A program made the position numbers and the translations under genes. The notes under the pieces were generated by a model. That model did not search any database. It saw nothing but the letters and a program-made list of their open reading frames with translations, and was not told where the DNA came from. From positions 769,066 to 833,065 of the forward strand of contig CP011212.1 in NCBI GenBank assembly GCA_001029715.1: 64,000 nucleotides of DNA, given 5' to 3'. This DNA comes from a candidate division TM6 bacterium GW2011_GWF2_28_16 (GTDB taxonomy: Bacteria > Patescibacteriota > Microgenomatia > UBA1400 > PJMF01). Below, in pieces: positions 35,393 through 59,463 of the stretch (position 1 is its first letter; each line of letters opens with the position of its first letter).

Positions 35393-35399
35393 ATACTTG

Positions 35400-35470
35400 C
35401 AGGGCGGGAAGGAATCGAACCTTCATCAAGGGTTTTGGAGACCCCGATTCTACCGTTGAAATACCGCCCT
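35400..35470 (-). tRNA. tRNA-Trp (anticodon CCA)
   Basis: Reverse complement 'AGGGCGG-TA-TTTCAACGGTAGAA-TC-GGGGT-CTCCAAA-ACCCT-TGAT-GAAGG-TTCGATT-CCTTC-CCGCCCT-G'. 7-bp acceptor stem, anticodon loop CU-CCA-AA, T-loop TTCGATT. Confidence 0.8.
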
Positions 35471-37394: not shown

Positions 37395-37469
37395 TGAGCC
37401 ACCTCTGGGACTCGAACCCAGGACCTACTGTTTACAAAACAGTTGCTCTACCAACTGAGCTAAGGGGGC
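37395..37469 (-). tRNA. tRNA-Thr (anticodon UGU)
   Basis: Reverse complement 'GCCCCCT-TA-GCTC-AGTTGGTA-GAGC-A-ACTGT-TTTGTAA-ACAGT-AGGTC-CTGGG-TTCGAGT-CCCAG-AGGTGGC-T'. One C/T mismatch in the acceptor stem. Confidence 0.8.
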
Positions 37470-37474
37470 GATAG

Positions 37475-37556
37475 TGCCAAGGGAAGGATTCGAACCTACG
37501 GAGGCTAGGCCAGCAGTTTTACAGACTGCCCTCGTTGACCACTTGAGTACCTTGGC
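37475..37556 (-). tRNA. tRNA-Tyr (anticodon GUA), type II with long variable arm
   Basis: Reverse complement 'GCCAAGG-TA-CTC-AAGTGGTCAAC-GAG-G-GCAGT-CTGTAAA-ACTGC-TGGCCTAGCCTCC-GTAGG-TTCGAAT-CCTTC-CCTTGGC-A'. Perfect acceptor stem. Confidence 0.8.
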
Positions 37557-37563
37557 GTCTCTA

Positions 37564-37638
37564 TGAGCCTTCGTCGGGGATCGAACCCGAGACCTCAGTC
37601 TTACCAAGACTGCGCTCTACCAACTGAGCTACAAAGGC
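37564..37638 (-). tRNA. tRNA-Thr (anticodon GGU)
   Basis: Reverse complement 'GCCTTTG-TA-GCTC-AGTTGGTA-GAGC-G-CAGTC-TTGGTAA-GACTG-AGGTC-TCGGG-TTCGATC-CCCGA-CGAAGGC-T'. One G-U pair in the acceptor stem. Confidence 0.8.
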
Positions 37639-43615: not shown

Positions 43616-44041
43616 CTAAATTTTAAACTTTATAGATAGCCACCTACCTTTTGAAGGAATACTATAGCTACCATGTCTCACACCTGATTTAACAAAATAT
43701 AATTTATATTCACCTATAGTTTGTGAGGCTCTAGGCAAACCAGCATAAACACTATCTTTGTCTACAATGACTATTTCTGTAATGCCATCAGCGCCATGAT
43801 CATGTTCATTAACTCTGCCTGAGTCTACAGTAATATTTTGATCAATACATTGAGACCAAAAACCAACTATTCTTCCATCTGACCCAGAGTATAAATTTTC
43901 TGAAGTCAATAATCCAACATGACCAGCAATTGGAGTTTTAGGCTCATCATCTGCTAAAAAAGCCGCTATTGAATCAGTATTTAGACCAACTACCGATAGG
44001 ACCTCATTTATTAAAGAATTATTTGGTTCTTTCTCTGACAT
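43616..44041 (-). CDS. hypothetical protein (141 aa) co-oriented with and 12 nt downstream of thrS
   Basis: ORF only; 'HDHGADG' and Gly-rich loops; no family recognised. Confidence 0.4.
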   Translation of the reverse strand: MSEKEPNNSLINEVLSVVGLNTDSIAAFLADDEPKTPIAGHVGLLTSENLYSGSDGRIVGFWSQCIDQNITVDSGRVNEHDHGADGITEIVIVDKDSVYAGLPRASQTIGEYKLYFVKSGVRHGSYSIPSKGRWLSIKFKI

Positions 44042-44053
44042 AAAGCGCCCGTT

Positions 44054-46078
44054 CTACTTTTTCAAAAACTCATCTAGCAAACTCAAATCTTGTGCACCTA
44101 AATCGCCACTTTGACTTAATTCTGCTTTTAATTCGCCGTTTTTGATCAATTCTTCTGCTCTCTCACGAGCTTTACCGCGCACGCGCACACCAACCTTATT
44201 AGCTTCAATTTCGCTGTCGCCAATAATAAGCATTAATGGCACTCTCGCTACTTCAGCAGCTCGAATTTTAGCCTGCAAACGCTCGGAGCGGTCATCAATT
44301 TCTACTCTAACGTCCTGGTCCAATAATTGGTTCATGATTTTTTGCGCATATTCCAAATGACGATCAGCGATGGGCAAAATTTTAACCTGCACTGGCGCAA
44401 ACCAGACTGGAAAATCGCCACCGTGTTGCTCAATTAAGAAAGCAAAGAAGCGTTCAAAAGAGCCAATTAAGGCACGATGAATTACAAAAGGACGTTGTTT
44501 TTCACCTTTTTCATCGACATAAGTAATGTCAAAGCGTTCTGGTAAGTTAAAGTCCACCTGAATCGTTGAAATACTATCTTCTTTGCCAAAAACATTCACT
44601 GCTTGAACATCGAGTTTGGGACCATAAAAAGCCGCCTCGCCTTTGGCTTCAACATAATCAACTCCGGCTTCATTGAGAATTTCGCGCATGATGTTTTCAG
44701 CTTTTTCCCAATCACTGCGCTTACCACAAGCTTTGAACTTTTCTTTATCTGGATCTGAAATTGAAAGACGGAAGTGATAATTATCGAAACCCATATCTTT
44801 GTAAAAAAGATCTAACATTTTCATTACTTCTTTGAATTGGTCCTTCAATTGCTCTGGTGTACAGAAAATATGAGCATCATTTTGCGTAAAACCGCGGACT
44901 CTCTGCAAACCATGCAATTCGCCAGATTTTTCGCGACGATAAACAGTGCCAAATTCACCCATCTTAACTGGCATGTCGCGGTAGCTATGACTTTTAAGTT
45001 TATAGACCATCATTCCAGCAGGACAGTTCATTGGTTTGGGATAATAGACTTCAGGCTGTCCTATAACTTTTCCCGAATCATCTTTTTCTTCGTAGGTCAA
45101 GGCTGGATACATACTATCTGCATAAAAACCTAAATGTCCTGATGTTTCAAATAATTCTTTTCTATTCAAATGAGGAGTCAAAATATGAACATACCCGAAG
45201 CGTCGCTCCATTTTCATCATGTAATCTTCCAAGACCCTGCGCATAGCATAGCCATTTGGCAACCAAACTGGTAAACCCTGACCAATTTCTGGAATGATCG
45301 CAAATAGCTCCATTTCTTTGCCAATCTTACGATGGTTGCGCTCTTCAGCCAGTTGTTTCTTGGTTAAATAATCATCTAAGTCAGCCTGTGAAGAAAAAGC
45401 TGTGCCGTAAATACGCGTCAGCATTTTATTTTTCTCATCACCGCGCCAATAGGCACCGGCGATACTCAAAAGTTTAAAAGCTTTGATTTCGGAAATTTTC
45501 TCGACGTGAGGACCCTTACACAAATCAGCAAAAGAAGCTAACTTAATACTAGCTTTATCGCTGTTTGACATCATTTCTAAACCAGCAATCAATTTTTTAT
45601 CTGCTTCAATTTGCTCGGGACGACCCGTCAAATACAGAGTAATTTTTTCTGGATTTCTCTCTAGCATCTGATGTTTGATCATCGATTTGCCATCACTCAC
45701 CGATTCACTTAGCTCAAAATCCTCAGCATGTTCTAAGCCATCGAGTAATTCTTGCTTATAAGAATTATTGGCAAAAATTTGTCTCGCTACTCCGAGAGAA
45801 ACCTCTACTCTTTCCATCAACAAACCTTGCTGGATAAGTTTTTTCATTTCTTTTTCAATCTTAGGAAAATCTTTTTCAGTGATTTTTAAGCCTTTTTCTT
45901 TGGCACTTTCGGCGATATCAAAGTCAAAATAAAAACCATCGTCGATGGCTGGCCCCATGGCTTTAATAATCACTGGATTACTTTTCTCATCACTGCCATA
46001 AAGTTTTTCCATGACTATAGTCAGAACGTGCTCCGCGCTATGACGCATAAGGAACAATTGGTCGATTGGTTTTTGCAT
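44054..46078 (-). CDS. thrS: threonyl-tRNA synthetase (begins at the editing/second additional domain; no separate N-terminal TGS segment evident)
   Basis: 'HSAEHVL' (HxxxH) editing-domain motif, class II catalytic core, C-terminal anticodon-binding domain. Confidence 0.9.
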   Translation of the reverse strand: MQKPIDQLFLMRHSAEHVLTIVMEKLYGSDEKSNPVIIKAMGPAIDDGFYFDFDIAESAKEKGLKITEKDFPKIEKEMKKLIQQGLLMERVEVSLGVARQIFANNSYKQELLDGLEHAEDFELSESVSDGKSMIKHQMLERNPEKITLYLTGRPEQIEADKKLIAGLEMMSNSDKASIKLASFADLCKGPHVEKISEIKAFKLLSIAGAYWRGDEKNKMLTRIYGTAFSSQADLDDYLTKKQLAEERNHRKIGKEMELFAIIPEIGQGLPVWLPNGYAMRRVLEDYMMKMERRFGYVHILTPHLNRKELFETSGHLGFYADSMYPALTYEEKDDSGKVIGQPEVYYPKPMNCPAGMMVYKLKSHSYRDMPVKMGEFGTVYRREKSGELHGLQRVRGFTQNDAHIFCTPEQLKDQFKEVMKMLDLFYKDMGFDNYHFRLSISDPDKEKFKACGKRSDWEKAENIMREILNEAGVDYVEAKGEAAFYGPKLDVQAVNVFGKEDSISTIQVDFNLPERFDITYVDEKGEKQRPFVIHRALIGSFERFFAFLIEQHGGDFPVWFAPVQVKILPIADRHLEYAQKIMNQLLDQDVRVEIDDRSERLQAKIRAAEVARVPLMLIIGDSEIEANKVGVRVRGKARERAEELIKNGELKAELSQSGDLGAQDLSLLDEFLKK

Positions 46079-46265
46079 AAGATCTTTCTTGATTTTAGTT
46101 ATTGTTATTTTACTTGTTTTTTTAGTATTTTGCGAAAGGTAGCAGTTCTGGTAACCTTAAGCTCCCATAATTGAGCTTAAGTGGGCCTGCCACTGTTTGT
46201 GGAACCGGATCTGAGAAATTTGGTTCGGGAGTCCAATTCTCCTCAAGTCCACCAGCTTTTATTTA

Positions 46266-46294
46266 TTGACAAAATTGTCAAAAAAATATATATT
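46266..46294 (+). promoter_or_regulatory. near-consensus sigma70 promoter (TTGACA-17-TATATT) embedded in the palindrome TTGACAAAATTGTCAA
   Basis: -35 at 46266-46271, a 17-nt spacer, -10 at 46289-46294. Points rightwards into a region with no annotated plus-strand gene. Confidence 0.4.
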
Positions 46295-46346
46295 TAGGCA
46301 ATTCTCAGACAAGGTTCCAAATTGCCACAACCAGTGGTGAACCATT

Positions 46347-46378
46347 AAATCGCTTTTAAAAAAGCGATTTTTTGTTTT
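46347..46378 (+). terminator. plus-strand rho-independent terminator (AAATCGCTTTT/AAAAGCGATTT hairpin + TTTTTTGTTTT)
   Basis: About 80 nt downstream of the promoter at 46266-46294, delimiting a possible small transcript. Confidence 0.45.
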
Positions 46379-46420
46379 AATCCGCTTCGGGCATTCCTTC
46401 GTCGTTTAAGCTCAGTCACA

Positions 46421-46452
46421 AAAAATCCCGCTCTTGGCGGGGTTCTCATTTT
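46421..46452 (-). terminator. minus-strand rho-independent terminator ending the 5-gene operon (CCCGC/GCGGG stem followed by ATTTTTTGTG)
   Basis: 'aaaaaatgagaaccccgccaagagcgggattttttg' on the minus strand, 100 nt after the stop of gene 46555-48645. Confidence 0.55.
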
Positions 46453-46554: not shown

Positions 46555-48645
46555 TCAACCCGCTCCGCCACCACCACCTCCACCTCCACCGCCACCACCT
46601 CCAGAAAAACCTCCACTTGAACCACCTCCAGAAGCACCATAGCTGCTAGTGGCTGAGCTAGTCAGATTGGCAAAAGCACCGCCCAAAGAATTCAGCGAGT
46701 CAGTCAAAGAACCTAAGTTAATAGCACTTAAATTACCTACTGCGGAGCCATGTAAACTATCAAAGCTAGCAACTCCCCAATAGGTTCCCAAAACTCTTTG
46801 GTCAGCATCTGAGAAATGTACTGGCAATTGTGATAAAGCTTTCATCGACACTCCAAACAAAGTCCCATAAACCAAATATTTCTCCCACAAAATCACGCTA
46901 TCGATCGAATAGTCTTTAGTTTTTTTATAATCGAACATATGTTTTTTAAAAGCTTGCCACGCGCTAGCCTCTTCCCAACCTTTTTTAGTTCTTTTTTGGG
47001 CAAAATGTTGCAGCATAGAAAAAACCATTCCGATCGTAAAAAAGAGCAATAAATTAATTACAGCTAGAAATAAACCGATAGTAACTAAACTTGTGGTTTT
47101 TACTGATGGCTCTCCTTCTAACAAGTTACCAAGCATAAACAGGAGAATAAAGCTAAAAACAGGCACTAGAAAGACCCGTAGAGCCGAAAAACTTCTTGCG
47201 TAATCATAAGAATCTCTTTCAAAAAAACCTTGGCTAAGACCGCTATCTAAAGATGTTTTTTCCAAACCCTTAAAAAAGTTATAACTAGAAGAAGGATTAC
47301 TCTTAATATATTGGCTAATGTCGGTTAAAGCTAAGCGTCTTTTGGTTTTTTCAGTTGGTGTGGCGCTTAAAGCTCCTCGCTTTGTCCAGGTTTGTTCTTT
47401 TTCATCAAAAAATTGAAGATAACTTTTAGCAATTTTTTCAGTCAAAAACTCATAAACTTCCTGCTCCACTGCGGCTAATTCACTGGGTGAACGATTGGTT
47501 TTTTCCAAGAAATATTTGTACTCTTTGTGCAAAAAACCTTCTTTCTTATTGCTGCGAGTGATTTTGAAAAGTTTTTTAGCCACCAAAGACAAAACAGAAG
47601 CGGTAAAAACCTTTGGACTTAAACTTTTAGTCGCAGATAAAAGTTGTACCACCAAAGCTGGCTCCAAATCACTAGGTGGTTCCCAAACTCCACTTAAATT
47701 TTTTAATTTTTTATCTTTGCCCAAACGTAAAAACTTGGAAAACTCAACTACACTCAGGAAAACTCCAAGTAGAAAAAGCAATATCGTTGCTAAAAGATAG
47801 AGCAAACCCAAACGTTCGTTTTTCTTAACTTTAGCAATTGTTTCATCAATAAAAGATTGCTCCTCTTCTAAAATACTCGCTTCATTTGAAGAACCATTGA
47901 TTTCTCTCAAAAACATATTTGTTGGTAATAAAACTCTCCCTTCAAAAAACTTTCCAACTGGCAAGCGATCAGCCTGCAAAGAGACGAGATAAAGTCCAGT
48001 CTTTTCATCTGGCAAAGCAGAAATACTCACTTTCGCATTAAGTGGACCATGGCCAAAAGCCTTAACGCTATCAAGCTGGCTGGCCAAAATTTCTTTTGGC
48101 AAATAAATATCAACTTTGATGTTTTGGCTTGACACTTCCCAAGCATCACCAATAAATTGCCAATAAAGTTCAGCTATGTCTATGTGCTTAGTAATAGCAT
48201 TGCCAACTTTATAGCTCAAAACAAAATCTTTAACTTCGTAATTAGCCTGAAAGTGCCACTCTAAAAAATATTTGTCGCCCCGATCATCGATCAGAAAAGT
48301 ATTATCAGGATTGTTTCTGGGTTCTACTAAATTAGCTGAAGCCGTAGCCAAAGCTTTATAACAAAGCTCATTATTTTTTTCACAAAGCTTGAAATCGCTC
48401 AAAACATAAGGCACTTCTCTACCGTCGTTGCCTGGAACTTTGTTAATTTCTTGATAAACAAAACGATAATCACCTTGGAAATTAAATTGGCGCTCTTCCG
48501 TCACATCCATTGAGCCATCTTTATTGATGAAGGCTTGAATATTAACTGTGTCGATACTGTATTCTTTAGCAAAAGCACTACCAGAAAAAATGAAGGTAAG
48601 AATGAAAAATAGAAATAAAATTTTTTTATTCATAGCGTAAAGCAT
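46555..48645 (-). CDS. DUF2207-like membrane protein: signal peptide, large extracytoplasmic domain, transmembrane helices, C-terminal Gly-rich tail
   Basis: N-terminal 'KKILFLFFILTFIFSGSAFA', central hydrophobic helices, C-terminal 'GGGSSGGFSGGGGGGGGGGGGGAG'. Overlaps the upstream permease gene by 20 nt. Confidence 0.5.
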   Translation of the reverse strand: MLYAMNKKILFLFFILTFIFSGSAFAKEYSIDTVNIQAFINKDGSMDVTEERQFNFQGDYRFVYQEINKVPGNDGREVPYVLSDFKLCEKNNELCYKALATASANLVEPRNNPDNTFLIDDRGDKYFLEWHFQANYEVKDFVLSYKVGNAITKHIDIAELYWQFIGDAWEVSSQNIKVDIYLPKEILASQLDSVKAFGHGPLNAKVSISALPDEKTGLYLVSLQADRLPVGKFFEGRVLLPTNMFLREINGSSNEASILEEEQSFIDETIAKVKKNERLGLLYLLATILLFLLGVFLSVVEFSKFLRLGKDKKLKNLSGVWEPPSDLEPALVVQLLSATKSLSPKVFTASVLSLVAKKLFKITRSNKKEGFLHKEYKYFLEKTNRSPSELAAVEQEVYEFLTEKIAKSYLQFFDEKEQTWTKRGALSATPTEKTKRRLALTDISQYIKSNPSSSYNFFKGLEKTSLDSGLSQGFFERDSYDYARSFSALRVFLVPVFSFILLFMLGNLLEGEPSVKTTSLVTIGLFLAVINLLLFFTIGMVFSMLQHFAQKRTKKGWEEASAWQAFKKHMFDYKKTKDYSIDSVILWEKYLVYGTLFGVSMKALSQLPVHFSDADQRVLGTYWGVASFDSLHGSAVGNLSAINLGSLTDSLNSLGGAFANLTSSATSSYGASGGGSSGGFSGGGGGGGGGGGGGAG

Positions 48646-51193
48646 TTAAAGCTGAAATTTTTGTAGCTCTATAAGACGGATACATACCTGTAGCAACAGC
48701 GATAATGAAAGAAAGTGCCACTACACCCGCACCTAAATAAAATGGGATATAAACCAATTGAATGTAGCCGAGCCCTTTAGTTACAGAAATCATTGATAAA
48801 ATCAAACTAACCAATTGACCTGCCAAGGAACTAATTAAAAGTCCACACACCCCTCCAGACAAACCCATAACAATCGACTCTGCCAAAAATAAACGTTTCA
48901 CTTCATTTGATTTCATACCAATAGCCTTCATTAAGCCAACTTCTCTAGTTTTCTCCAAAAGTGAAACTGTTAGCGTATTAAACATTCCAAGCGCAGCAAC
49001 ACTTAAGGCCACCATGCCTAAAATTGAAAGCACAAACCTCACAGTATCAAACAAATCATTAATCTTACCCACTGTATCTACTACTGAGCTAGTTTGAAAA
49101 CCACTGGATTCAATACTTTGACGAATTTGATCAATTTTGTTTTGATCTTTAACTACAACTTTAATTTGAGAATAATTTTCTACTCCTAGACCCTTAATAT
49201 CATTAAATGGCATATAAAAAGCTGGCGTTTTTTCATCAGGAATAACAGCTACAATTGTAAAATCAGTTGGAGCAGATTCTGCCTGATAATCTGCCTTAGA
49301 AAAGAATTCTTGATCAAGCATAAAAGTAGTGTTAAAAACTTTCCCAACTGCATCAGCTTCATCAATTGCTAAAATTTTGAGCATAGCTCTATTAACTACG
49401 GCAACTTTTTGTGCCGACTCACGTAAAGGAATAACTTCTCTTTTTGTAATTGAAGCAGATGAAGAACCATCGCCCATACTATTCCAGTCCAAAGTACCAT
49501 CAGGCAATTGTTGCGCCATCAAAATAGTTCCATCTGCTAAAGCAATCTGACCACTATCGCTAGCCTCTTCTGAATCACTAGCTAAAGCACTTCCACTTGA
49601 TGAAGCACTGTTGGCAAGAGCACTCTCAATATTCTCTGCCAAAGATGCGCTAGCAGTTGATTCTCCTAAAACTTGACCGAACATTAGTGGTTCATCCATA
49701 TCTTCAATTAATACTCTATCTGCTCTTATATATGCTATTGCTTCTTTTTGTTTATTGTTGTCATCTAAATCTCTTAAATAAGTGTTATCACAAGTCTCTC
49801 CGCAATCAACTTTCTTCCAAAGTGGCAAACTCGCTCTCACCCAATAACCGACATTTTTGCCATTAACATTGCTGCCTACATTGCCCCAACCACTCTCGCT
49901 GTAATAAGATTCTCCATAAACTAATTCTCCAGAAATTAATAAATCATTTGTTTGAGAAGCATAAGTATTAAGAATCTGTTTGTCTTTAAAAACATCCGAG
50001 TAAAGTTCAATATATTTATTTTTGCCAATACTAAAGCTAATTGACTCGACTGTATCTCCCTCTATAAAACTTGGAAAAGCCGAAGCTAAAACTTTATATC
50101 GATCAATACTCATACTATCCTCAGTCATGTATCCTTGAATCAATTCTTGTCCATTTCCAGATTTAATAACTTGATACTTGCCGTCTACACAACCAAGCTC
50201 ATTTTCATCACAGATTCCACTCTTCCAGAGTGGCACAGTATCAACTATCCATGGACTGAAAACATTACTAAACAAATCGATGCCTTCGATTAAAGGTTCG
50301 CTGGTCTCATAAGACTCCCCCCAAACCTCACTTGCTTCAACATCTCCAACTCCTCTACTCGTGTAACCAAGAATTTTGGATTTTGTACTAGGCTCCGTAT
50401 AAACTGGCTTCCAAACCAATGGATAAATTGAGTAACGAGCTTGAGATAGCTCCTTTCCCAATTTTGCGCCACTCAAACGTTTAATAACTGCACCAGCAAC
50501 CTGACCAACAACATCGTCGTTTGATTCTATTTCTGCGGAGAGCTCCTTGTCTTCAAAAAGCGTCCCTTTAACTGGCTGAATAGCCGATTGTTGCAAAAAT
50601 TCTTTAGTTACTCCGTAAGCAACTACATCTGAAACAGAGTTGTTATAATTAACTTTAGAGACAATAGAAATCATTGGAATAACTAGCTCCACTCCTTCAA
50701 TATTTTTTAAATCATCCAAAGTTTTATCATTGATCGTTAAAGAAGCAGATTGACCGATGGTGACATTAATCTGTTTCATTTCATCTAATCTAGCTACTCT
50801 CGAAATAACTAGTTTTTGGACGCCATAGCCTAAAGATAATAAAAACACCACTGCTCCAAAGCCAATAGCCATGCCACCAATAGTAATAATAGTGCGGGTC
50901 TTCTTTAATTTTAAATGTCTGACAGCTAAATGTACTAAATCTAAAGAAGAAATTTCGCCCTCATCTTTGGAGTTAAGAGGTCCAATGATTTTTTTATAAA
51001 TAGTTTTAACTGGTTTTCTAAATGGGTTAGCAAGAATTCTAATAATTGGCCAATGACTAATAAATTTCAGAACATCAAAAAAAAGATAAATAATGACAAT
51101 TAAGAAAAAACGTAAGAAAAAGAACAACTCCTTAACAAAAGCAATGTAATTAAAACTCTTAAGCTTGGAAAGAAAGGATTTTAGTTTTGTCAT
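48626..51193 (-). CDS. MacB/FtsX-type ABC transporter permease with a very large (~600 aa) extracytoplasmic domain
   Basis: Transmembrane helix 1 'IITIGGMAIGFGAVVFLLSLGYGV', then a long soluble insert, then an FtsX 3-helix bundle at the C-terminus ('MKAIGMKSNEVKRLFLAESIVMGLSGGVCGLL'). Overlaps the ATPase gene by 4 nt. Confidence 0.7.
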   Translation of the reverse strand: MTKLKSFLSKLKSFNYIAFVKELFFFLRFFLIVIIYLFFDVLKFISHWPIIRILANPFRKPVKTIYKKIIGPLNSKDEGEISSLDLVHLAVRHLKLKKTRTIITIGGMAIGFGAVVFLLSLGYGVQKLVISRVARLDEMKQINVTIGQSASLTINDKTLDDLKNIEGVELVIPMISIVSKVNYNNSVSDVVAYGVTKEFLQQSAIQPVKGTLFEDKELSAEIESNDDVVGQVAGAVIKRLSGAKLGKELSQARYSIYPLVWKPVYTEPSTKSKILGYTSRGVGDVEASEVWGESYETSEPLIEGIDLFSNVFSPWIVDTVPLWKSGICDENELGCVDGKYQVIKSGNGQELIQGYMTEDSMSIDRYKVLASAFPSFIEGDTVESISFSIGKNKYIELYSDVFKDKQILNTYASQTNDLLISGELVYGESYYSESGWGNVGSNVNGKNVGYWVRASLPLWKKVDCGETCDNTYLRDLDDNNKQKEAIAYIRADRVLIEDMDEPLMFGQVLGESTASASLAENIESALANSASSSGSALASDSEEASDSGQIALADGTILMAQQLPDGTLDWNSMGDGSSSASITKREVIPLRESAQKVAVVNRAMLKILAIDEADAVGKVFNTTFMLDQEFFSKADYQAESAPTDFTIVAVIPDEKTPAFYMPFNDIKGLGVENYSQIKVVVKDQNKIDQIRQSIESSGFQTSSVVDTVGKINDLFDTVRFVLSILGMVALSVAALGMFNTLTVSLLEKTREVGLMKAIGMKSNEVKRLFLAESIVMGLSGGVCGLLISSLAGQLVSLILSMISVTKGLGYIQLVYIPFYLGAGVVALSFIIAVATGMYPSYRATKISALNALRYE

Positions 51194-51945
51194 GACTTTT
51201 CTGCCCTTCCTATATTACCTCTTTTAGAAACGCTGAGTTTTTTTAGACGCTCATCATTGGCTGAATACTCACCAACTACAACTCCATCGGCCATATTAAC
51301 AGATCTTGAAGCAAACTTAAGATATTCCAAATCGTGAGTAACCATAATGACTGTTTTTCCCTTATCATTAGATTGCTTAAATAAGGCCATAATGTCTTCA
51401 CTAGCTTTTGAATCCAAATTACCAGTTGGCTCGTCTGCCACGATCAAAGCTGGATCAGAAATCAAAGCTCTAGCTAAAGAAACACGTTGCTGCTGACCAG
51501 ATGAAAGTTCGGCAGGATTTTGGAGAGCACCTTGCTCCATGCCAACCATTTTTAAAACTTCCATCGCTCGTTTTTCTCTTTCTTCTTCTGGCAAACCACG
51601 CAGAGTTAAAGGGAAGTATACATTTTCAATAACGTTGAGCGATTTTACCCAGTTAGATTGCTGATAAATAATTCCAACCTGTTGCTTTCGCATTTGCGCA
51701 CGTCCATCTTCGTCAAAAGCATCGTAAATATTCTTGCCTAAGAAAATTACTTCTCCTTTGGTTGGAGGCTCCAAACCAAGCAAAATATTTAGCATAGTGC
51801 TCTTACCACAACCAGAGGGACCAAATAAAATCAAAAAATCACCCTTATTAACTGAAAAACCAGCTCCTTTAATAATCTGAGTTTCCTGAGTTCCCAGATT
51901 AAATGATTTATGAATTTCAGTTAGTTTAAGTATTTGTTCTGCCAT
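51190..51945 (-). CDS. ABC transporter ATP-binding protein (MacB/LolD-like)
   Basis: Walker A 'GPSGCGKST', signature 'LSSGQQQRVSLARAL', Walker B 'IVADEPTGNLD', H-loop 'VTHD'. Confidence 0.85.
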   Translation of the reverse strand: MAEQILKLTEIHKSFNLGTQETQIIKGAGFSVNKGDFLILFGPSGCGKSTMLNILLGLEPPTKGEVIFLGKNIYDAFDEDGRAQMRKQQVGIIYQQSNWVKSLNVIENVYFPLTLRGLPEEEREKRAMEVLKMVGMEQGALQNPAELSSGQQQRVSLARALISDPALIVADEPTGNLDSKASEDIMALFKQSNDKGKTVIMVTHDLEYLKFASRSVNMADGVVVGEYSANDERLKKLSVSKRGNIGRAEKS

Positions 51946-52344: not shown

Positions 52345-55300
52345 TTACTTAGTTCCTAAAAATCCAAATATCAAAGACATATTGGAAACCACCAAATCTA
52401 AGGCATTGTCCGTAGCTTTTGGAGTAATTACTACTTTATCAACTGACTCTCCCACATTACTATACTGATCTTTTGATAAGGCTCGCAAGTGATAAACCTT
52501 CGATGGAGTTAATCCAGAAATAACAACTATATGGTGACTTGTTAAGGAAGCATCTTCTTGAGTTTTTTGTGAATAAGTTGAACCACTACCCTCTCCAAAC
52601 TCAATTTGGGCAGATGCTGGTTCATCCGTGTTAAACGAAACTAATAATTGAGCGGTTGATTCTTCTCCTACTCCAAGAATTTCTCCTTCCACTCTGAGAT
52701 CACTAATTTGAGGAGGCCTACTATCTGCCGAGGTTGCAATCTGTTGGAACTCACCAACAGCTTCATTACCAACGGCATCTTTACCTTTGATTAAAATTCC
52801 ATAAGTTGTCTGTGAATCAAGATCATAAATAATCATTTGATGTTTACCAGACTTAAGAGCAAGATTGACTTCGTCTTTGGCTGCCCCCGGAGCGGTAACT
52901 GGATAATAGGTTACAATTGAAGAAATACTGGTGTTTGATTCCCAAGTAACTAATAGAGTCGATCTAGCAGTCCCTTTAACTTGACTCACTTTAATATTTT
53001 TGATTTTTGGTCTTGGTAAAGTTTCGAATGAATGAATTTCACCCTCATATTCTTCACCCTCTGAGTCAAAAGAGTTAATTTTGTAATAATATTTAGTGCC
53101 ATCTTTCAAGTCTGAAAGTTGCACAGTGTGCGTACCCTCTCCAGAGCCAGTCACTACATTTTCGATTCCGCCAAAAGCAGATGATTCACCAAAATAAACT
53201 CTAACGCTAGCAGCATTTTTTGATATAAATTGAATTAAAGCACTGTCCAAACCCATACTTTTTACCTGAGGTTCTTCTGTTGTTGGAGCTGGCTCTGTAA
53301 CAAAAGTTGCTTCAGCAGACTCACCAGTGTTTCCATCTTCATCCGTCCATTTAGCAATATAATAGTAAGTAGTTCCCGGAGAAAGGTTGAGTAAGTTTAA
53401 TGCATGATTAGTTGCTTGAATGGAATTTGAAACTTCTTCATCAAAATAATCACCAGGACTCGTTCCATAAGATATCCTCGAATCAGCTGTTCTTGCTGTG
53501 GACCAAGCAACAGAAGCTTTTTTAGTGGTCACATTTGAAACCACTGGCTCAGATACTAGACCAGCTGGTTCAATAAATTTTCCATCTGGAAATAATTCAA
53601 CCACTTCAGAAAATGCACCACAATTATTAGTGCTATCACAAACTTTGACTTTGTAATAATACTCTTGCTGAATCAAACCAGTATCAACGTAAGAAATACC
53701 ACCACTAGTAGCTATTTGAGCAAATGTTTCACCATCTATTGATCGATAAATAGCATAATGATCAGAAATACCACCCTCCGACGGAGCTTCCCAAGACAAA
53801 GCAATCTTCCAAGAGCTAGTGGCTTTAACAGAAACATCAGCAATATCCATATTAAGTGGAATTCCTGGAGCAGTGGTGTCTGCTGTAAAGATAACCGACG
53901 CATAATTTGAGTAATTTATGTTTCCCGCTTCGTCTTTAGTCACAATATAAAGAACATTTTCACCTGGTAAAGTTGCATAAGCCCCAGCAACTAAATTTCT
54001 TACACTAGTTCCAGTGGTACTATGGGCTGTTGGCAATGCATTAATACTGTAATAATAAGACAAATTAGAAACTGAGCCATAATAAGTTCCTGTTGCTGGA
54101 GGATCCCAACTAAAAGCAAAGGAATTTTCCGTATTAGATGATGGCGTGACTACTAAATTAGTTGGAGGTGCTGGAGCATTGCCGCTATCTACATAATAAT
54201 ATGGTGTAGATGCGTAATCACTATAGTTACCAGCCTCATCTTTACTACGAACATAAAAAGTATTCGCTCCCACTTTATGTGAAGGTATACCAGTGACAGA
54301 AGTGCTAGTGATACATTGATCTTCTGCATAAGTTCCTGAAGTGGCAGCAGTTTTATAACAATATCCAGTAATCTGTGCTCCACTGCTGGTGGACTCACTC
54401 CAAGAAAAATCAAAACTATCCGTAGCTGAATAGCCAGATGGATCAGCCGATAAATCAGCTGGAGCGGCTGGGGGTCGCGAATCATATTTATAAATGAAAG
54501 GTGCCCAAGCTTCTGCTGAAACATTTCCAGCATTATCAATCGTCTTAACTCTCAAATAATAAGTCTCTCCATCGGTCAAATTGCTAGCAGAATAGTTGCT
54601 ATCAACTTGAAGCGAACCGTCTTCTTCTGGATTTGCTGATGAATTTGTTCCAAAGTAAACATAATATCCAGCTACCCCTGAACCAGTACTTGTATCAGAA
54701 GCTCCATCTGTAGATTCTGCATCTGGCCAATCAAAATATGGATTACTATGCCCATACCAATTTGAGGAAACTATTGCCGTTCCAGGATCACTATTGCTAT
54801 AAGTAGCTAAACCAGAAGTTTGTGGATTTGTTGGCGCAGAAGTGTCTTTGTAATAATTAACCGTATAATCATTAATAACGCCAGAATAGACGCCATCTGA
54901 TGATGAAAGTTCAAATTTTATTTCAAGGTAACGAGCTGCTGGAGACTTAATTTCATAAATATAGCTTGAACCATTCTTCTTCTCAGAGGCTACTGCAGTC
55001 CAAGACGACCAAGTACTATTGTCAGCAGAACTGCGTGTTTTAATGCTAAGAGAAGCGTTATTTGCTAAAACATAATCAACTTGTAAATTTATCCATTTGT
55101 AGACTGAATCTAAATCGTGAGAAACAGAAGTATAAGTTCCCTCTTCTTCAAAAGAAGAAGTAGCTGTCTCCATAATGTATGTATAAATTCCATTGTCATA
55201 ACCACCAGTGCCGGTACCAGATAGCATAAAAACTTTGTCCACTCCATTACTTTCACCAGATCCACCAACATAAATTTTAGAGGGTGCATTGCCTAATTGA

Positions 55301-58300
55301 GTCCAATTGTTATCTACCACTGAATATTTATAAAAATCATTATCATTTTCACCTCTAGCAGCATAGATATTTCCATCTCCACCGTAAGTCGCGAAGCCAT
55401 CATTGTAAACATCTATATTCAGGTCGCTAACAGCTGGATCACTCCAAGTATTGCTTGCAATGTCATAGCGATAAAAAGGATTATTGGCTACGTTTTGGCC
55501 CCTTAAGGTATAAATATAGTTATTACCATCAAAAACCAGCTCAGCTCCATAACCCAAACCAGCAGGCGAAGCAGTCATAGTAGACCATTTGCTACCAGCA
55601 CTACCCTGCGTATCAAATCTATAGAAAGTAGTATTTGCTCCACCCCTATTTAAATAAATATAACGAGATCCGTCATAAGCCATAGAGCTACCATAATCTG
55701 TAACAGCAAGAGTTGGATCATCAACTTCTTCAGACCAAGTATTCGAAGCAATGTTATAAACATAAAATCTTTGTAAATAATAGCCACCAGTTAGATAAAT
55801 TTTATTTTGCGTACTATCATAAACTAATGAAGATCCAGAATAAGTCCCAGTAGGAGTTGAAGCCAGTTTTTGCATTGACCCAGTGCTCGAATCATAACGC
55901 ACAAAATCATCTGAATAGTTTCCTTTGGTTAGATAAAAATAATTACCATCACCCTTAACAAGATCTTCTCCATAGCCAGGATATACATAGTCCGTACCTT
56001 GATATGTTGTCCCGAACAAACCTACATTAGGGATTAGCCAGCTATCCTTTGAAACACTATATTTATAAAAATTAGTTCTATTGCCACCAATAATGGCATA
56101 TAAACTGTCACCAACATTTTTAAGATTGGCTCCATAATAAAAGGTGTATGGGGCTGAAGAAACCTCCTCCCAAGTTTGATCTGAAGTTTTAAACTTATAC
56201 ATCTTGTCAGAATAATAACCAGGAACAAAATAAACTGCCTCCGCGCTTGGAACGTATTCTATTGACGATCCTAAATAAGATAATTGAGGTAAATCTGGCA
56301 GAACCGCCCAAGAATTTGAGTTCATATTATAAACAGCAAACCCATCGCGAATATTACCTTGAGTAGCATAAACAAAACCATTTTCTCTATCTATTGCTAG
56401 GTCAGCTCCAATATAAGCACTATTATTAACAGCATTGGTAGTAGCACCAAAATCTAAGTTTGATAAAGATTCCCAACTATCCCCAACAGCGTCATATCTC
56501 CAAAAAGCATCATCATTATTTCCACGCATTACATAAACGTGTCCAGAACCGTCATATTCCATGGAAGCACCATAATAAACTGCTAAAGGGGCGTCACTTG
56601 CATCTTCATCACTCCAAATATTGTTTTCTATGTCATAACGATAAAATGAAGAAGTATTATTACCACGCAAACCATAAAGATAACCGTCTGGTCCTTCCAC
56701 TACTCCACCGCCAATATAAATATTTCCTGGAGCATTAGCTAAAGTCGACCAAGTATCACTAGCTAGATCGTAACCATAAAAAGTTGCTACATTTGCACCT
56801 CTAAAAGCAAAAAGCTTGTTTAATGATGCAACGTAGGCTGTATTTTTTGCTCCATATTGCATAGTTGCTGGAACATTACTTAATGGCTCTTGTAACCAAA
56901 AACCTCCCTCTCTGCTAGCTAATTTTAGTTGATTATTGCCTGTGTTAATTTCATCAGCAGTACCAACAAAATCAGTTATTGTTAAACTTTGCGGTGGCGA
57001 AATACCTGCATAAACATAAGTGAATATTGTGCTTGCATCACTAATATTCCCATAGCTATCTTTTGTTTTAATTCTTAAATAATAAGAACCAGTACTTAAG
57101 CTTTCAGTTACAGTGTAATTACTATTTGTCTGAAAAAATCCTACTGATTCTGGATCAGCTACTTCATTACTACCAAAATAAACATAATATCCAGCAACCT
57201 CAGATTGCGCATCGGTTGCTCCACTCCATGAGAAGTAGGGGCGAATATAATTATATGTTTCTCCACTAGTCAGTGCTATACCAGCAACCTGCTGAGAGAG
57301 ACCACTAATGGCATCTGGATTGCTTGGTGCCAAAGTATCACCTGCATAAGAAATACTAATCTCACTTAACGTCGGGCTACTAGCAGAGCCGCTTGAAGCC
57401 ACCAGTGTTGCTTTAACCTGAATAAATCTTTGAGCTGGAGAAGAAATCACTCCGCTCGCCACAACAACCCAATCACTCCAAGATAAAGCGTCACTACTAG
57501 TTCTAGTTTCATAAATAATACTGCTATCGTCTGGAGTTGATGAGGTAGCAGAAAAAGCAGTAAAACTAGAAACGTAAGCTAGATCTTTAATTTCAGAGGT
57601 CCATGATCCAGTGGCATAATACTTATTTGCTGCAGGAGTATAAGTGAGAATATTTTGGCGACCATTTCCATAAGAAATATAAAAAGAATTATTGCTATCA
57701 TATTCAATAGAAGCACCTGCATAAACTCCATTATCCTGAGCATAATAACCAGGAATACTCTGCAATTTCCTCCAATTATCTAAAGAAATATTGTACTCAT
57801 AAATGTCTTTTTTGTACCAACCTGCCAAAGCAACAATTTTTCCATCATGGTAAGCAAGATCGGTGCCGTAAAATGGAGCAAATGGAGGCTTAGCAACTTC
57901 TGTCCATACATTGTCATTAATTGTATATTTAAAAAATCTGCTAATACCAACTCCAGGAATATAGAATATATCAGTACCATCAGAGATAAGACGAGAACCA
58001 TACGAAGACTCTGCATCCACAGGTAAATCAGCCACTGAGACATCATCCCAAGAGTTTCCAGAAATACTGTATCTCCAAAAAGAATTAGTGGTAGCTCCAC
58101 GCGTTGCATAGATATAATCTCCAGAACCAGGATAGGATAGAGCTCCTCCAAAACGCACTGTAGTTGGCGGAGCAGTCATCGTAGTCCAACTGTCTCCTGA
58201 AGGACTGTATCTATAAAAACTATTAGTGTTCCCGCCTCTAAAAAAATAAAGATCAGAACCAGCTACTACTCCTTTGACATCATCTGTCATTGTTCCTGGA

Positions 58301-59463
58301 GTAGCGGTTAAGGTGGTCCAAACATTGGCGGAAGGATCATATTTATAAAATGTAGAGTTTGCACCACGCAATACATACATGTCATCATCGTAATAAACGA
58401 TATCACTACCTGTGGATAGAGTGCCTGGAGCATCATCAACGCCAATAAACGAATTTGTTGCTGGATCGTATTTCCAAAAATTGTATGTTCCATTTCCTTG
58501 AAAAACATAAACATAACCATCATTGCTGTTATAGATAGAACCAGCATAACGGGAAACTGCTGGGAGATTGGCTAAAGTTGACCAAGTATTTGAAACAATG
58601 TCATAAGCATAAAAAGAATTTGTTCCACTCTGTCTGGTAACATAAATTTTGCTGCCATCGGTGGAAATTTCAACGTCTTCATTAATTGTGACCGGTAAAA
58701 CAGCCATTGTTGCCCAAATGTTAGCGGTTAGGTCATATCTATAAAATGTGTTTGTATTACTTCCACGAGGCGTGTACAAATAATTCCCCACTCTAACCAA
58801 ATCTGATCCAGAAGAAGTTGTAGCTGGAGTACCAGCCATAGGACTCCAAGAATTATTGCCAACGTCGTATTTATAAAAATCTTGTGTACCACCCGAACGG
58901 AGAGCATAGATACTCGTGCCATCATTTTCCAAACTGGCTCCAGAGTAAATCAGATCTGGCAAATCGCTCAACATTTCCCAAGAATCATTAGCCACCGAAT
59001 AACGAGCAAAAGCAGTTTGATAGCCACCAAACATGGCATAAACATAACCATCCATATATTCCAACTCTGATCCGTAGTAAGTTCCTCTCGGCAAATTAGC
59101 CAAAGTAGTCCATTTATCATTTTCAGGAGAATATTTCCAAAATAGAACATCTCCAGTTCCTCTTGAAACATAAATATCTTCACCATCAAAGGCTAAAGCC
59201 GTACCTGCGCTTAAAGTAAGATCTGGAGCTCTCCAACTTTTTGCTCCAAAAGTTCCAGCTGCACTTATTGAAACATCTCCTTCTTTGATAGAAAAATCTA
59301 AATTTAGATTTGTCCCAGCATCCCAATCAGAACTAGTAGTAAAAAATGTTTCTGAGGCCCTAACTGGAAATTCATAAAAAAGTAAATTTAAGGCAAAAAA
59401 AGACATCACAACAAAAGCAATTCTCAACACAAAAAACTCGCGATTGTTGAATCCCGAAACCAT
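52345..59463 (-). CDS. giant (2372 aa) membrane-anchored or secreted surface protein: Kelch-type beta-propeller repeats interleaved with and followed by fibronectin type III-like domains
   Basis: N-terminal hydrophobic segment 'FFVLRIAFVVMSFFALNLLF'. More than 25 repeats of ~47 aa matching the Kelch blade pattern (IYV..G.....FY.YD...N.W..L...P). FN3-like modules such as 'APSNPDAISGL...YYVYFGSNE...YYLRIKTKDSYGNIS' and 'APTNPQTSGL...YYLRVKTIDNAGNVS', then at least 5 tandem FN3-like modules at the C-terminus. No LPxTG-type sorting signal. Confidence 0.7.
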   Translation of the reverse strand: MVSGFNNREFFVLRIAFVVMSFFALNLLFYEFPVRASETFFTTSSDWDAGTNLNLDFSIKEGDVSISAAGTFGAKSWRAPDLTLSAGTALAFDGEDIYVSRGTGDVLFWKYSPENDKWTTLANLPRGTYYGSELEYMDGYVYAMFGGYQTAFARYSVANDSWEMLSDLPDLIYSGASLENDGTSIYALRSGGTQDFYKYDVGNNSWSPMAGTPATTSSGSDLVRVGNYLYTPRGSNTNTFYRYDLTANIWATMAVLPVTINEDVEISTDGSKIYVTRQSGTNSFYAYDIVSNTWSTLANLPAVSRYAGSIYNSNDGYVYVFQGNGTYNFWKYDPATNSFIGVDDAPGTLSTGSDIVYYDDDMYVLRGANSTFYKYDPSANVWTTLTATPGTMTDDVKGVVAGSDLYFFRGGNTNSFYRYSPSGDSWTTMTAPPTTVRFGGALSYPGSGDYIYATRGATTNSFWRYSISGNSWDDVSVADLPVDAESSYGSRLISDGTDIFYIPGVGISRFFKYTINDNVWTEVAKPPFAPFYGTDLAYHDGKIVALAGWYKKDIYEYNISLDNWRKLQSIPGYYAQDNGVYAGASIEYDSNNSFYISYGNGRQNILTYTPAANKYYATGSWTSEIKDLAYVSSFTAFSATSSTPDDSSIIYETRTSSDALSWSDWVVVASGVISSPAQRFIQVKATLVASSGSASSPTLSEISISYAGDTLAPSNPDAISGLSQQVAGIALTSGETYNYIRPYFSWSGATDAQSEVAGYYVYFGSNEVADPESVGFFQTNSNYTVTESLSTGSYYLRIKTKDSYGNISDASTIFTYVYAGISPPQSLTITDFVGTADEINTGNNQLKLASREGGFWLQEPLSNVPATMQYGAKNTAYVASLNKLFAFRGANVATFYGYDLASDTWSTLANAPGNIYIGGGVVEGPDGYLYGLRGNNTSSFYRYDIENNIWSDEDASDAPLAVYYGASMEYDGSGHVYVMRGNNDDAFWRYDAVGDSWESLSNLDFGATTNAVNNSAYIGADLAIDRENGFVYATQGNIRDGFAVYNMNSNSWAVLPDLPQLSYLGSSIEYVPSAEAVYFVPGYYSDKMYKFKTSDQTWEEVSSAPYTFYYGANLKNVGDSLYAIIGGNRTNFYKYSVSKDSWLIPNVGLFGTTYQGTDYVYPGYGEDLVKGDGNYFYLTKGNYSDDFVRYDSSTGSMQKLASTPTGTYSGSSLVYDSTQNKIYLTGGYYLQRFYVYNIASNTWSEEVDDPTLAVTDYGSSMAYDGSRYIYLNRGGANTTFYRFDTQGSAGSKWSTMTASPAGLGYGAELVFDGNNYIYTLRGQNVANNPFYRYDIASNTWSDPAVSDLNIDVYNDGFATYGGDGNIYAARGENDNDFYKYSVVDNNWTQLGNAPSKIYVGGSGESNGVDKVFMLSGTGTGGYDNGIYTYIMETATSSFEEEGTYTSVSHDLDSVYKWINLQVDYVLANNASLSIKTRSSADNSTWSSWTAVASEKKNGSSYIYEIKSPAARYLEIKFELSSSDGVYSGVINDYTVNYYKDTSAPTNPQTSGLATYSNSDPGTAIVSSNWYGHSNPYFDWPDAESTDGASDTSTGSGVAGYYVYFGTNSSANPEEDGSLQVDSNYSASNLTDGETYYLRVKTIDNAGNVSAEAWAPFIYKYDSRPPAAPADLSADPSGYSATDSFDFSWSESTSSGAQITGYCYKTAATSGTYAEDQCITSTSVTGIPSHKVGANTFYVRSKDEAGNYSDYASTPYYYVDSGNAPAPPTNLVVTPSSNTENSFAFSWDPPATGTYYGSVSNLSYYYSINALPTAHSTTGTSVRNLVAGAYATLPGENVLYIVTKDEAGNINYSNYASVIFTADTTAPGIPLNMDIADVSVKATSSWKIALSWEAPSEGGISDHYAIYRSIDGETFAQIATSGGISYVDTGLIQQEYYYKVKVCDSTNNCGAFSEVVELFPDGKFIEPAGLVSEPVVSNVTTKKASVAWSTARTADSRISYGTSPGDYFDEEVSNSIQATNHALNLLNLSPGTTYYYIAKWTDEDGNTGESAEATFVTEPAPTTEEPQVKSMGLDSALIQFISKNAASVRVYFGESSAFGGIENVVTGSGEGTHTVQLSDLKDGTKYYYKINSFDSEGEEYEGEIHSFETLPRPKIKNIKVSQVKGTARSTLLVTWESNTSISSIVTYYPVTAPGAAKDEVNLALKSGKHQMIIYDLDSQTTYGILIKGKDAVGNEAVGEFQQIATSADSRPPQISDLRVEGEILGVGEESTAQLLVSFNTDEPASAQIEFGEGSGSTYSQKTQEDASLTSHHIVVISGLTPSKVYHLRALSKDQYSNVGESVDKVVITPKATDNALDLVVSNMSLIFGFLGTK

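Follow-up and report, generated by a model that had tools for sequence, protein, structure and literature searches.

A predicted tRNA-like RNA and its putative antisense small RNA in a lineage-specific insert beside thrS of a candidate-phyla-radiation bacterium

The insert between thrS and the DUF2207 gene

We analyzed a 64,000-nucleotide stretch of contig CP011212.1 (positions 769,066 to 833,065; hereafter the window) from a low-GC (~37% G+C) candidate-phyla-radiation (CPR) bacterium of the Pacebacteria type, and focused on a non-coding element in the gap upstream of the threonyl-tRNA synthetase gene thrS. The thrS gene is encoded on the minus strand (44054-46078, with its ATG at 46078) and has the tRNA_SAD, class II core and anticodon-binding domains. 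Its product, ThrRS, is 81-93% identical to ThrRS of uncultured 'Pacebacteria'-type metagenome-assembled genomes. The next gene upstream, also on the minus strand, encodes a DUF2207 membrane protein (46555-48645), and the gap of 476 nucleotides (nt) between the two genes holds the element. On the plus strand the element comprises a 72-nt tRNA-like sequence (46183-46254) and, downstream of it, the promoter, body and terminator of a predicted small RNA (sRNA) of ~79 nt (46300-46378), the first part of which is complementary to the tRNA-like sequence. The gap also contains the bidirectional terminator hairpin of the DUF2207 gene (46424-46444; strong minus-strand terminator at 46441-46427), which is conserved in all relatives and which would shield the element from minus-strand read-through and provide a second plus-strand stop. 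Between the insert and the thrS ATG, the promoter scan called the thrS promoter, TTCGCA-18-TAAAAT (46136-46107, minus strand).

Alignments with relatives, their upstream sequences and a blastn search of the element against all loci placed the approximate limits of the insert at 46137-46380 (plus strand). Among the aligned thrS upstream regions, this block of ~250 bp was carried only by the window and its identical sibling L088, by L001, by L084/L085, by L090/L091 and by L086. The comparisons below use these five distinct variants, four besides the window; they are few, closely related and not phylogenetically independent, which limits the covariation counts. The block was absent from L087, L089, L092-L095, L096, L097-L099, L100-L101 and L102, and from the outgroups L002-L004, so that at least eight distinct sister loci and three outgroups have the same thrS promoter without the block. 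Most of the empty sites read TT followed directly by AGAAAGGATAGCCTTTCGC, running straight into the thrS promoter. The carriers are scattered in the thrS tree, which is poorly resolved.

The element proved to be independent of thrS. The sequence-only reading of this DNA had described the sRNA as antisense to the thrS leader and had linked it to thrS control. However, the thrS promoter lies downstream of the element, the thrS 5' untranslated region (UTR) is only ~20-30 nt long, and ~200 nt separate it from the sRNA. The promoter was kept in carriers and non-carriers alike, and its -10 hexamer was retained even in the outgroups. The conserved proximal promoter and the short UTR mean that the sRNA is not antisense to the thrS leader and that there is no room for a leader of the T-box type. 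The proposed link to thrS control fails as well, since the whole block is missing from sister loci with an unchanged thrS promoter.

Both blastn and a covariance model found the element as a single copy in the 64 kb and in all loci. In all five variants it has one orientation; no target-site duplication was found at the insert junctions, and no recombinase was found among the neighbours examined. A search of phage and plasmid collections with blastn in 'distant' mode gave no match to the element, and the covariance model of the tRNA-like sequence (R1) recovered the known copies only when it was searched in the window and in 25 loci, among them other CPR thrS loci. Exact-pattern scans of viral contigs gave chance matches only, inside unrelated high-GC coding sequence (L081-L083). 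A pattern scan of metagenome contigs also gave chance matches only; its pattern demanded GTCC in the T arm and was thus blind to copies of the L084 and L090 type, and the collection scanned evidently did not hold the Joint Genome Institute (JGI) contig that is identical to the window.

Two further repeated sequences were observed around the element. The stretch from the DUF2207 terminator to the element holds a second variable module, whose unit of ~39-45 nt reads, on the thrS strand, GAGCTTCGCGAGGGAGTGTCCGAAGTGGAGACGGAGGAC. It was found in two copies in L090 (~1040-1140), in diverged form in L086 and L102, and partially in L089 and the window (46380-46418); L001, L084 and L092 have none. The module thus occurs with or without the element, and it was not listed by TRF. 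In L001, L084 and L090, an outer inverted repeat of 8-9 bp, AAGTGGGC(C)/(G)GCCCACTT, brackets the core that runs from the tRNA-like sequence to the terminator. One copy follows closely on the terminator of the element, the other closely precedes G1 of the tRNA-like sequence, and RNAalifold pairs the two. The window (AAGCGGAT) and L086 have degenerate versions of this repeat.

The tRNA-like sequence, the predicted small RNA and their complementarity

The tRNA-like sequence, GGGCCTG-CCACTGTTTGTGG-AACCGGAT-CTGAGAA-ATTTGGTT-C-GGGAG-TCCAATT-CTCCT-CAAGTCC-A-CCA, folds into a linker-free cloverleaf on the plus strand. It consists of a 7-bp acceptor stem with a G3·U70 pair (46183-46189 with 46244-46250), a D-like hairpin (46190-46202), an 8-bp anticodon-like stem (46203-46210 with 46218-46225) with a 7-nt loop CTGAGAA (46211-46217; NNGAGAA across the variants), a T arm with a 5-bp stem and a 7-nt loop (46227-46243), and the 3' end A73-CCA (46251-46254). 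The lengths of the acceptor stem, T stem and T loop are those of a tRNA cloverleaf. Of the variants, L084 and L090 alone have the canonical T-loop sequence, TTCGATT or TTCAATT, and the T-loops of the window and L001 are degenerate. The core departs from that of a tRNA: there is no U8/N9 linker, the 5-nt D loop lacks G18G19, and the anticodon-like stem is 8 bp long. At position 33 the variants have U, C, C, C and U. Judged by these features, the sequence at 46183-46254 is not a decoding tRNA. ARAGORN, run on the window and the five carriers, called nothing at the element, Rfam returned no tRNA match to it, and the R1 model did not match the genuine tRNAs of the window.

When the 72-mer is folded in isolation, the cloverleaf has the minimum free energy in four of five variants. 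Across the variants, 97.5% of the cloverleaf pair cells are standard pairs, compared with 30-57% when the 3' partners were slid by 1-3 columns. Pair 6:67 changes from U-A to G-C in L086, one stem pair changes from A-U to G-C in L084 and L090, and four more stem pairs are Watson-Crick in some variants and G·U in others. On the plus strand, all nine non-Watson-Crick cells in the anticodon-like stem (9/9) are G·U, as are the invariant 3:70 pair and one in the T stem; on the minus strand, all of these would be C·A mismatches. This polarity means that the selected molecule is a plus-strand RNA. The identity of the tRNA-like sequence between carriers is 0.81-0.94, far above the 0.53-0.70 at the four-fold sites of thrS, which indicates purifying selection.

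The acceptor end of the tRNA-like sequence resembles that of an alanine tRNA. G3·U70 and A73 were found in all five variants, and an encoded CCA in four. The four genuine tRNA genes of the window (Trp, Thr-UGU, Tyr and Thr-GGU; 35399-35470 and 37396-37638) have no encoded CCA. Alanyl-tRNA synthetase (AlaRS) charges minihelices with G3·U70, so it is reasonable to infer that the tRNA-like RNA may be charged with alanine. Bacterial alanine identity has four determinants in the acceptor stem, of which the element matches three, A73, G2-C71 and G3·U70 (PMC9976931). A U at position -1 and an acceptor-like stem with RCCA supply the sequence prerequisites for release by RNase P. Upstream, the hexamer CATAAT (46166-46171, plus strand) lies 12 nt from G1 and is invariant in all five variants amid a variable stretch, and it is the only candidate -10 for the tRNA-like RNA.

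Several other features at the tRNA-like sequence were considered. In L086 the T-loop carries a 41-nt insertion (~885-925) that includes CCGCCAAGAGCG, a 12-mer that also makes up the terminator hairpin of the DUF2207 gene upstream; in this variant CAG replaces CCA after A73. The insertion, whose length is not a multiple of three, is tolerated there. An open reading frame (ORF) that overlaps the tRNA-like sequence (VGLPL...) was rejected, as it shows non-synonymous substitutions and its frame is shifted by the insertion in L086. A hairpin upstream of the tRNA-like sequence (46157-46182) was not conserved. A comparison of the tRNA-like sequence with the tRNAs of the window, as its possible origin, found no convincing similarity.

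The second predicted RNA of the element has a promoter sequence of its own. Promoter P2, TTGACA-17-TATATT (-35 at 46266-46271, -10 at 46289-46294, plus strand), matches 11 of the 12 consensus positions. Matches of this quality occur three times in the 64 kb of the window, compared with 2.3 expected from Markov shuffles. As such a match is not rare in this AT-rich DNA, the sequence alone proves little, and it is conservation that lifts P2 above chance. The -35 hexamer is TTGACA in all five variants, and the spacer is always 17 nt while its sequence varies. The -10 hexamer is TATATT, or TAAAAT in L086, and the scan tool called P2 independently in L086 and L090. A minus-strand promoter candidate, TTGTCT-16-TATATT (46312-46285), was rejected since its -35 is not conserved.

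Downstream of P2 lies an intrinsic terminator, AAATCGCTTTT/AAAAGCGATTT (46347-46370, plus strand), followed by the U tract TTTTGTTTT that ends at 46378. A terminator hairpin with a U run folds in every variant, with differing stems (AAAUCGCUUUU/AAAAGCGAUUU, AAAUCGCUC/GAGCGAUUU and AAAAUCAC/GUGAUUUU). The transcript would start 6-7 nt past the -10 and end with the U tract, giving an sRNA with a single-stranded 5' seed (AAUUCUC...), a hairpin CCAC-AACCA-GUGG (46325-46337) and the terminator. In the sRNA folds of four variants, at least the first 7 nt were unpaired and the terminator was always formed; the fold in the window has a z score of -4.5. No ORF was conserved in any frame on either strand across the element variants. 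The element thus has what a generic bacterial sRNA gene has, namely, its own promoter, a Rho-independent terminator, conservation among relatives and no coding capacity.

These results bear on much of the sequence-only reading, which had proposed P2, a plus-strand terminator ~80 nt downstream (46347-46378) and a small RNA between them. Promoter and terminator are present as described, and their retention in five diverged variants supports an independent plus-strand unit of ~80 nt with a predicted sigma-70-type promoter and an intrinsic terminator. The palindrome TTGACAAAATTGTCAA (46266-46281), which had been suggested as an operator, is present in the window. However, it reads TTGACAGAATCAACAA, TTGACAAAACCATCAA, TTGACAAAATCACTAA or TTGACAAAAACTGCTA in the other variants, with the -35 half alone retained, and the operator idea was dropped. 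Likewise, the 7-bp 5' hairpin of GGCAATT (46297-46303) and AATTGCC (46320-46326) exists in the window but is not conserved, its counterparts being AGTAATT/AATCTCC in L001 and L090 and AGCAATT/AATTCCC in L084. Comparison of the thrS upstream regions of relatives, which that reading had recommended, found the promoter in all five carriers but not the palindrome, and the block was missing elsewhere. The Rfam scan it had also recommended, run on the whole window at gathering thresholds, reported no family at the element. The upstream tRNA-like sequence and its complementarity to the sRNA had been overlooked.

One arm of the complementarity is nt 8 to ~36 of the tRNA-like sequence (46190-46217, plus strand), from the D hairpin through the 5' half of the anticodon-like stem to the end of its loop; the other is the initial ~37 nt of the sRNA (46302-46337, plus strand). 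The match was seen in the inverted repeats, by RNAalifold and in pair counts. The predicted duplex is ~26-29 bp long. The RNAalifold consensus is a long-range helix of ~29 bp in which 6 pairs are maintained through two-sided changes. In an explicit 25-pair model, 97.6% of the cells were paired, compared with 30-45% after sliding, and 4 pairs changed on both sides. The variable loop positions CU, UC, CC, CC and GU covary with AG, GG, GG, GG and AC in the sRNA, and the seed AAUUCUC was unpaired in every sRNA fold. Since the complementary sites are on the same strand, their pairing must be maintained by selection.

Co-folding gave a net gain of -11 to -26 kcal/mol after the cost of unfolding. The cognate partner was the best for L086, whose tRNA-like sequence clearly favours its own sRNA (-26.4 versus at least -14.5 kcal/mol), and near-best for L084 and L090. 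When all 60-nt windows of the 64 kb were scanned with RNAduplex, the tRNA-like sequence was the top plus-strand partner of the seed, and no thrS site was among the top matches. A stronger, minus-strand match at 51750-51821 (-37 to -39 kcal/mol) falls in Walker-A coding sequence, with 27 nt looped out to bridge it; it was judged to be due to chance.

The surroundings of the locus showed other variable features. In the window and L088, thrS and the L1/L11/NusG/SecE cluster are separated by a 141-amino-acid ORF without a Pfam match (43616-44041, minus strand); at this spot other relatives have nothing, or Ldh_2, CopG/Fic or AbiEii genes, which makes the downstream side of thrS a variable spot as well. 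The 3' end of the DUF2207 gene (46555-46650, minus strand) encodes a long glycine-rich tail of GGT/GGA/GGC repeats, the length of which differs among relatives. Further away, a very large ORF of 2372 amino acids (52345-59463, minus strand) lies upstream of a MacB/FtsX-type permease gene (48626-51193). ARAGORN also called a 93-nt 'tRNA-Asn (att)' at 2884-2976 (minus strand), which is probably a false positive, as the Rfam tRNA model did not match it and the sequence resembles coding DNA.

Interpretation of the element

On balance, and with modest confidence, we consider the element to be an RNA-only antisense module of ~250 bp, in which a tRNA-like RNA and a matching 'anti-tRNA-like' sRNA are both encoded on the plus strand. 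The predicted duplex excludes the cloverleaf and the sRNA has a strong, conserved promoter of its own, which favours an antisense pair. In this model, a self-contained locus encoding two RNAs would have been inserted between the DUF2207 terminator and the thrS promoter. The first RNA would be tRNA-shaped, with an alanine-type acceptor/T minihelix (G1-C72, G2-C71, G3·U70, A73 and CCA) and an 8-bp 'anticodon' arm that does not decode, and it would be freed from its primary transcript by RNase P and 3' trimming. The second RNA would be transcribed from the near-consensus P2 and stopped by the intrinsic terminator. Its single-stranded 5' end could nucleate pairing at the 7-nt loop of the tRNA-like RNA, and the pairing could then spread along the 5' side of the anticodon-like stem into the D hairpin, to a total of ~26-29 bp, abolishing the cloverleaf. 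The sRNA would thus act as a dedicated antisense regulator. It would unfold its tRNA-like partner or sequester it, or do so with the precursor if both RNAs lie on one read-through transcript, and the resulting long duplex would be of the kind cut by RNase III.

Among other candidate roles, the free tRNA-like RNA might donate alanine, lure away a tRNA-binding enzyme as a decoy or serve as a rescue factor. A more specific version, which we regard as doubtful, is that the element is an undescribed module in which a non-decoding, alanine-accepting tRNA mimic (a stand-alone tRNA domain like that of transfer-messenger RNA [tmRNA], or an Ala-minihelix donor) has its folding, maturation and charging switched off by a separately transcribed 'anti-tRNA' sRNA from the same strand. 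If the alanine-accepting mimic is real, a reduced CPR genome would regulate the supply of an aminoacylated tRNA mimic.

A number of observations weigh against the antisense pair. Either of two mutually exclusive forms, the cloverleaf or the long duplex, may prevail in vivo. No convincing promoter was found before the tRNA-like sequence: the CATAAT hexamer has no -35 and was not called by the promoter scan. Pair 4:69 is C-G, compared with G-C in tRNA-Ala. The window itself holds the weakest copy, with a C5·A68 mismatch, the T-loop with TCC, a 3-nt internal loop in the duplex and a net free-energy change (ddG) of only -11; L084 has an A2·C71 mismatch, and L086 combines the T-loop insertion with the loss of the encoded CCA. 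In the pairing tests of the cloverleaf and the long helix, one control (control (a)) gave no more than a suggestive result. If the arms of the DNA inverted repeat underwent gene conversion, this too could have kept them complementary. Finally, the patchy presence of the element among sister genomes indicates that it has been repeatedly lost or exchanged, and its absence from many of them shows that it is dispensable.

The rival that survives best is a single, long cis-acting RNA, which we nevertheless think unlikely. Here a plus-strand transcript of ~200 nt, from upstream of 46183 to the terminator, would form a ~29-bp irregular hairpin with a branched apical region, and this hairpin would be the functional part, for example as an RNase III processing substrate or a protein-binding scaffold; P2 would be an internal or secondary promoter and the cloverleaf incidental. 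The long hairpin is the choice of the RNAalifold consensus, the 231-nt fold in the window has a z score of -6.5, and no terminator lies between the tRNA-like sequence and the sRNA part. However, pairs found only in the cloverleaf, namely the acceptor pair 6:67, those made by the 3' side of the anticodon-like stem and those of the T stem, were also kept, some by compensatory or G·U changes, and an internal position does not explain why P2 is conserved and near consensus.

Still less probable is an element that works as DNA. The inverted repeats at 46190-46217 and 46302-46337 might form an invertible promoter switch or belong to a mobile insertion resembling a miniature inverted-repeat transposable element (MITE), and recombination or gene conversion, not RNA pairing, would then keep the arms complementary. 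It agrees with this idea that the repeats bracket P2, that the outer 8-9 bp repeat flanks the core in some variants and that close relatives differ in carrying the block. On the other hand, the 84-122 bp between the arms are very short for site-specific inversion, all five variants have the same orientation, and the element is single-copy, with no target-site duplication, no recombinase nearby and no phage or plasmid match. The bias of the mismatches to G·U on the plus strand, together with the covariation of the local stems, is also at odds with a DNA-level element.

A decaying, functionless pseudogene of tRNA-Ala or tmRNA beside a fortuitous promoter would account for the acceptor mismatches in the window and L084, the degenerate T-loops of the window and L001, the insertion in L086, the dispensability of the element and its sub-threshold Rfam scores. 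We find this very improbable given conservation far above the four-fold-site level, pairing kept through compensatory and G·U changes and a conserved promoter geometry. We give as little credence to a minimal split ribosome-rescue RNA of the tmRNA type, in which an alanine-charged tRNA-like RNA would dock non-covalently, through loop-seed pairing, on an sRNA that serves as the message. The G3·U70 pair, A73-CCA, the T arm and the missing anticodon are hallmarks of the tRNA-like domain of tmRNA, and the best, albeit weak, Rfam matches are tmRNA and tmRNA_permuted. However, neither a reading frame nor a stop is conserved in the sRNA, the stop being lost in L090 and the frame of L086 closing after 7 codons; pseudoknots are absent, a duplex of 26-29 bp would destroy the acceptor stem, sister genomes lack the element, and ARAGORN was negative. 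The proposal of the sequence-only reading, a simple trans- or cis-acting sRNA or an operator palindrome controlling thrS, draws on the adjacency of the element to thrS and on a real promoter and terminator, and it is highly unlikely in view of the missing overlap with the thrS transcript, the unconserved palindrome, the sisters that lack the element yet have an identical thrS promoter and UTR, and the rank of the tRNA-like sequence, and of no thrS site, in the RNAduplex scan.

To our knowledge, almost nothing is known of regulatory RNAs in CPR bacteria. If both RNAs of the antisense pair are made, the element would be a compact, protein-free pair in which one sRNA is devoted to a tRNA-shaped partner, and it could reveal a new use of alanine-type tRNA mimics outside translation and trans-translation. 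The analysis also corrects a tempting misreading, in that the element is not a thrS leader, an operator or a T-box substitute.

Comparison with known RNAs and DNA elements

The element shares single features with several known systems. Like fimS-type invertons, it has inverted repeats that bracket a strong promoter; unlike them, it has a spacing of 84-122 bp, one orientation in all variants, no recombinase nearby and a G·U substitution bias. Neither does it have the multiple copies, junction duplications or recombinase neighbours of a MITE or an inverton.

The T-box leaders of aminoacyl-tRNA synthetase genes also lie beside a synthetase gene, pair with the anticodon loop of a tRNA-shaped partner and contain an intrinsic terminator. 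However, Rfam gave no T-box match (RF00230), and the element is on the strand opposite to thrS, with no gene downstream of its terminator. The pairing spans 26-29 bp in the element and a 3-nt codon in the T-box, and the UGGU of the sRNA does not covary with the 3' end of its partner in L086. A minus-strand leader, T-box or ThrRS operator was rejected because the thrS promoter is proximal and conserved, sisters lack the element, and the pairs would include C·A mismatches on the minus strand.

In Rfam searches at gathering thresholds (whole window) and at E<=10 (the region and L090), all matches of the element were below threshold: tmRNA with 14 bits, tmRNA_permuted with 14.7 bits, a further match of the tmRNA type with 12.8 bits, and mascRNA with 19.7 bits, the top match in L090. 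These weak matches reflect the generic tRNA-like shape. The mascRNA of MALAT1 (RF01684) and the bacterial YrlA Y RNAs are, like the predicted RNA, non-decoding, ~60-70 nt long and built on a tRNA-like four-way junction. YrlA adjoins rsr/rtcB and is not known to have a free CCA end, and neither mascRNA nor YrlA is known to have a dedicated complementary sRNA. mascRNA is eukaryotic, with a gathering score of 42.5 compared with the 19.7 bits of the element, and is cut from a longer transcript by RNase P and RNase Z (PMC4919922).

In structure, the nearest relative is the tRNA-like domain of tmRNA, including that of two-piece tmRNAs. The element has in common with it G3·U70, A73, an encoded CCA, a T arm and a helix that replaces the decoding anticodon arm. 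Mitochondrial tmRNAs without the message part exist. The acceptor end of the element is of the alanine type found in tmRNA (RF00023; RF04321, permuted). However, its scores of 12.8-14.7 bits compare with a gathering score of 47, it has no tag ORF, pseudoknots or ARAGORN call, and it is dispensable among sisters. A tag-ORF reading of the element was discarded, as its frames are not conserved.

In function, the nearest precedent is the C4 family, which comprises c4 of phages P1 and P7 and the CI RNA of P4. These RNAs have their complementary target on the same strand of the same locus, without overlapping antisense transcription, and their loops start the pairing. The likeness lies in the tRNA-like end and in the complementary site on the same strand. 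RNase P releases the c4-type regulatory RNA, which is small and has an acceptor end like that of a tRNA (PMC4919922). In contrast to C4, the element gave no Rfam C4 match at E<=10, and its neighbours are housekeeping genes, with no phage or plasmid similarity. Its RNA has all four arms of the cloverleaf, the T arm among them, as well as G3·U70, and the partner is a non-coding RNA with its own promoter and terminator, whereas the C4 target is the ribosome-binding site of an mRNA.

As the element lacks what defines a tRNA, a tmRNA, a C4 RNA, a T-box, a MITE or an inverton, it is a member of no family. We class it, on its sequence, as a probable new variant that combines a tRNA-like non-coding RNA with an antisense RNA.

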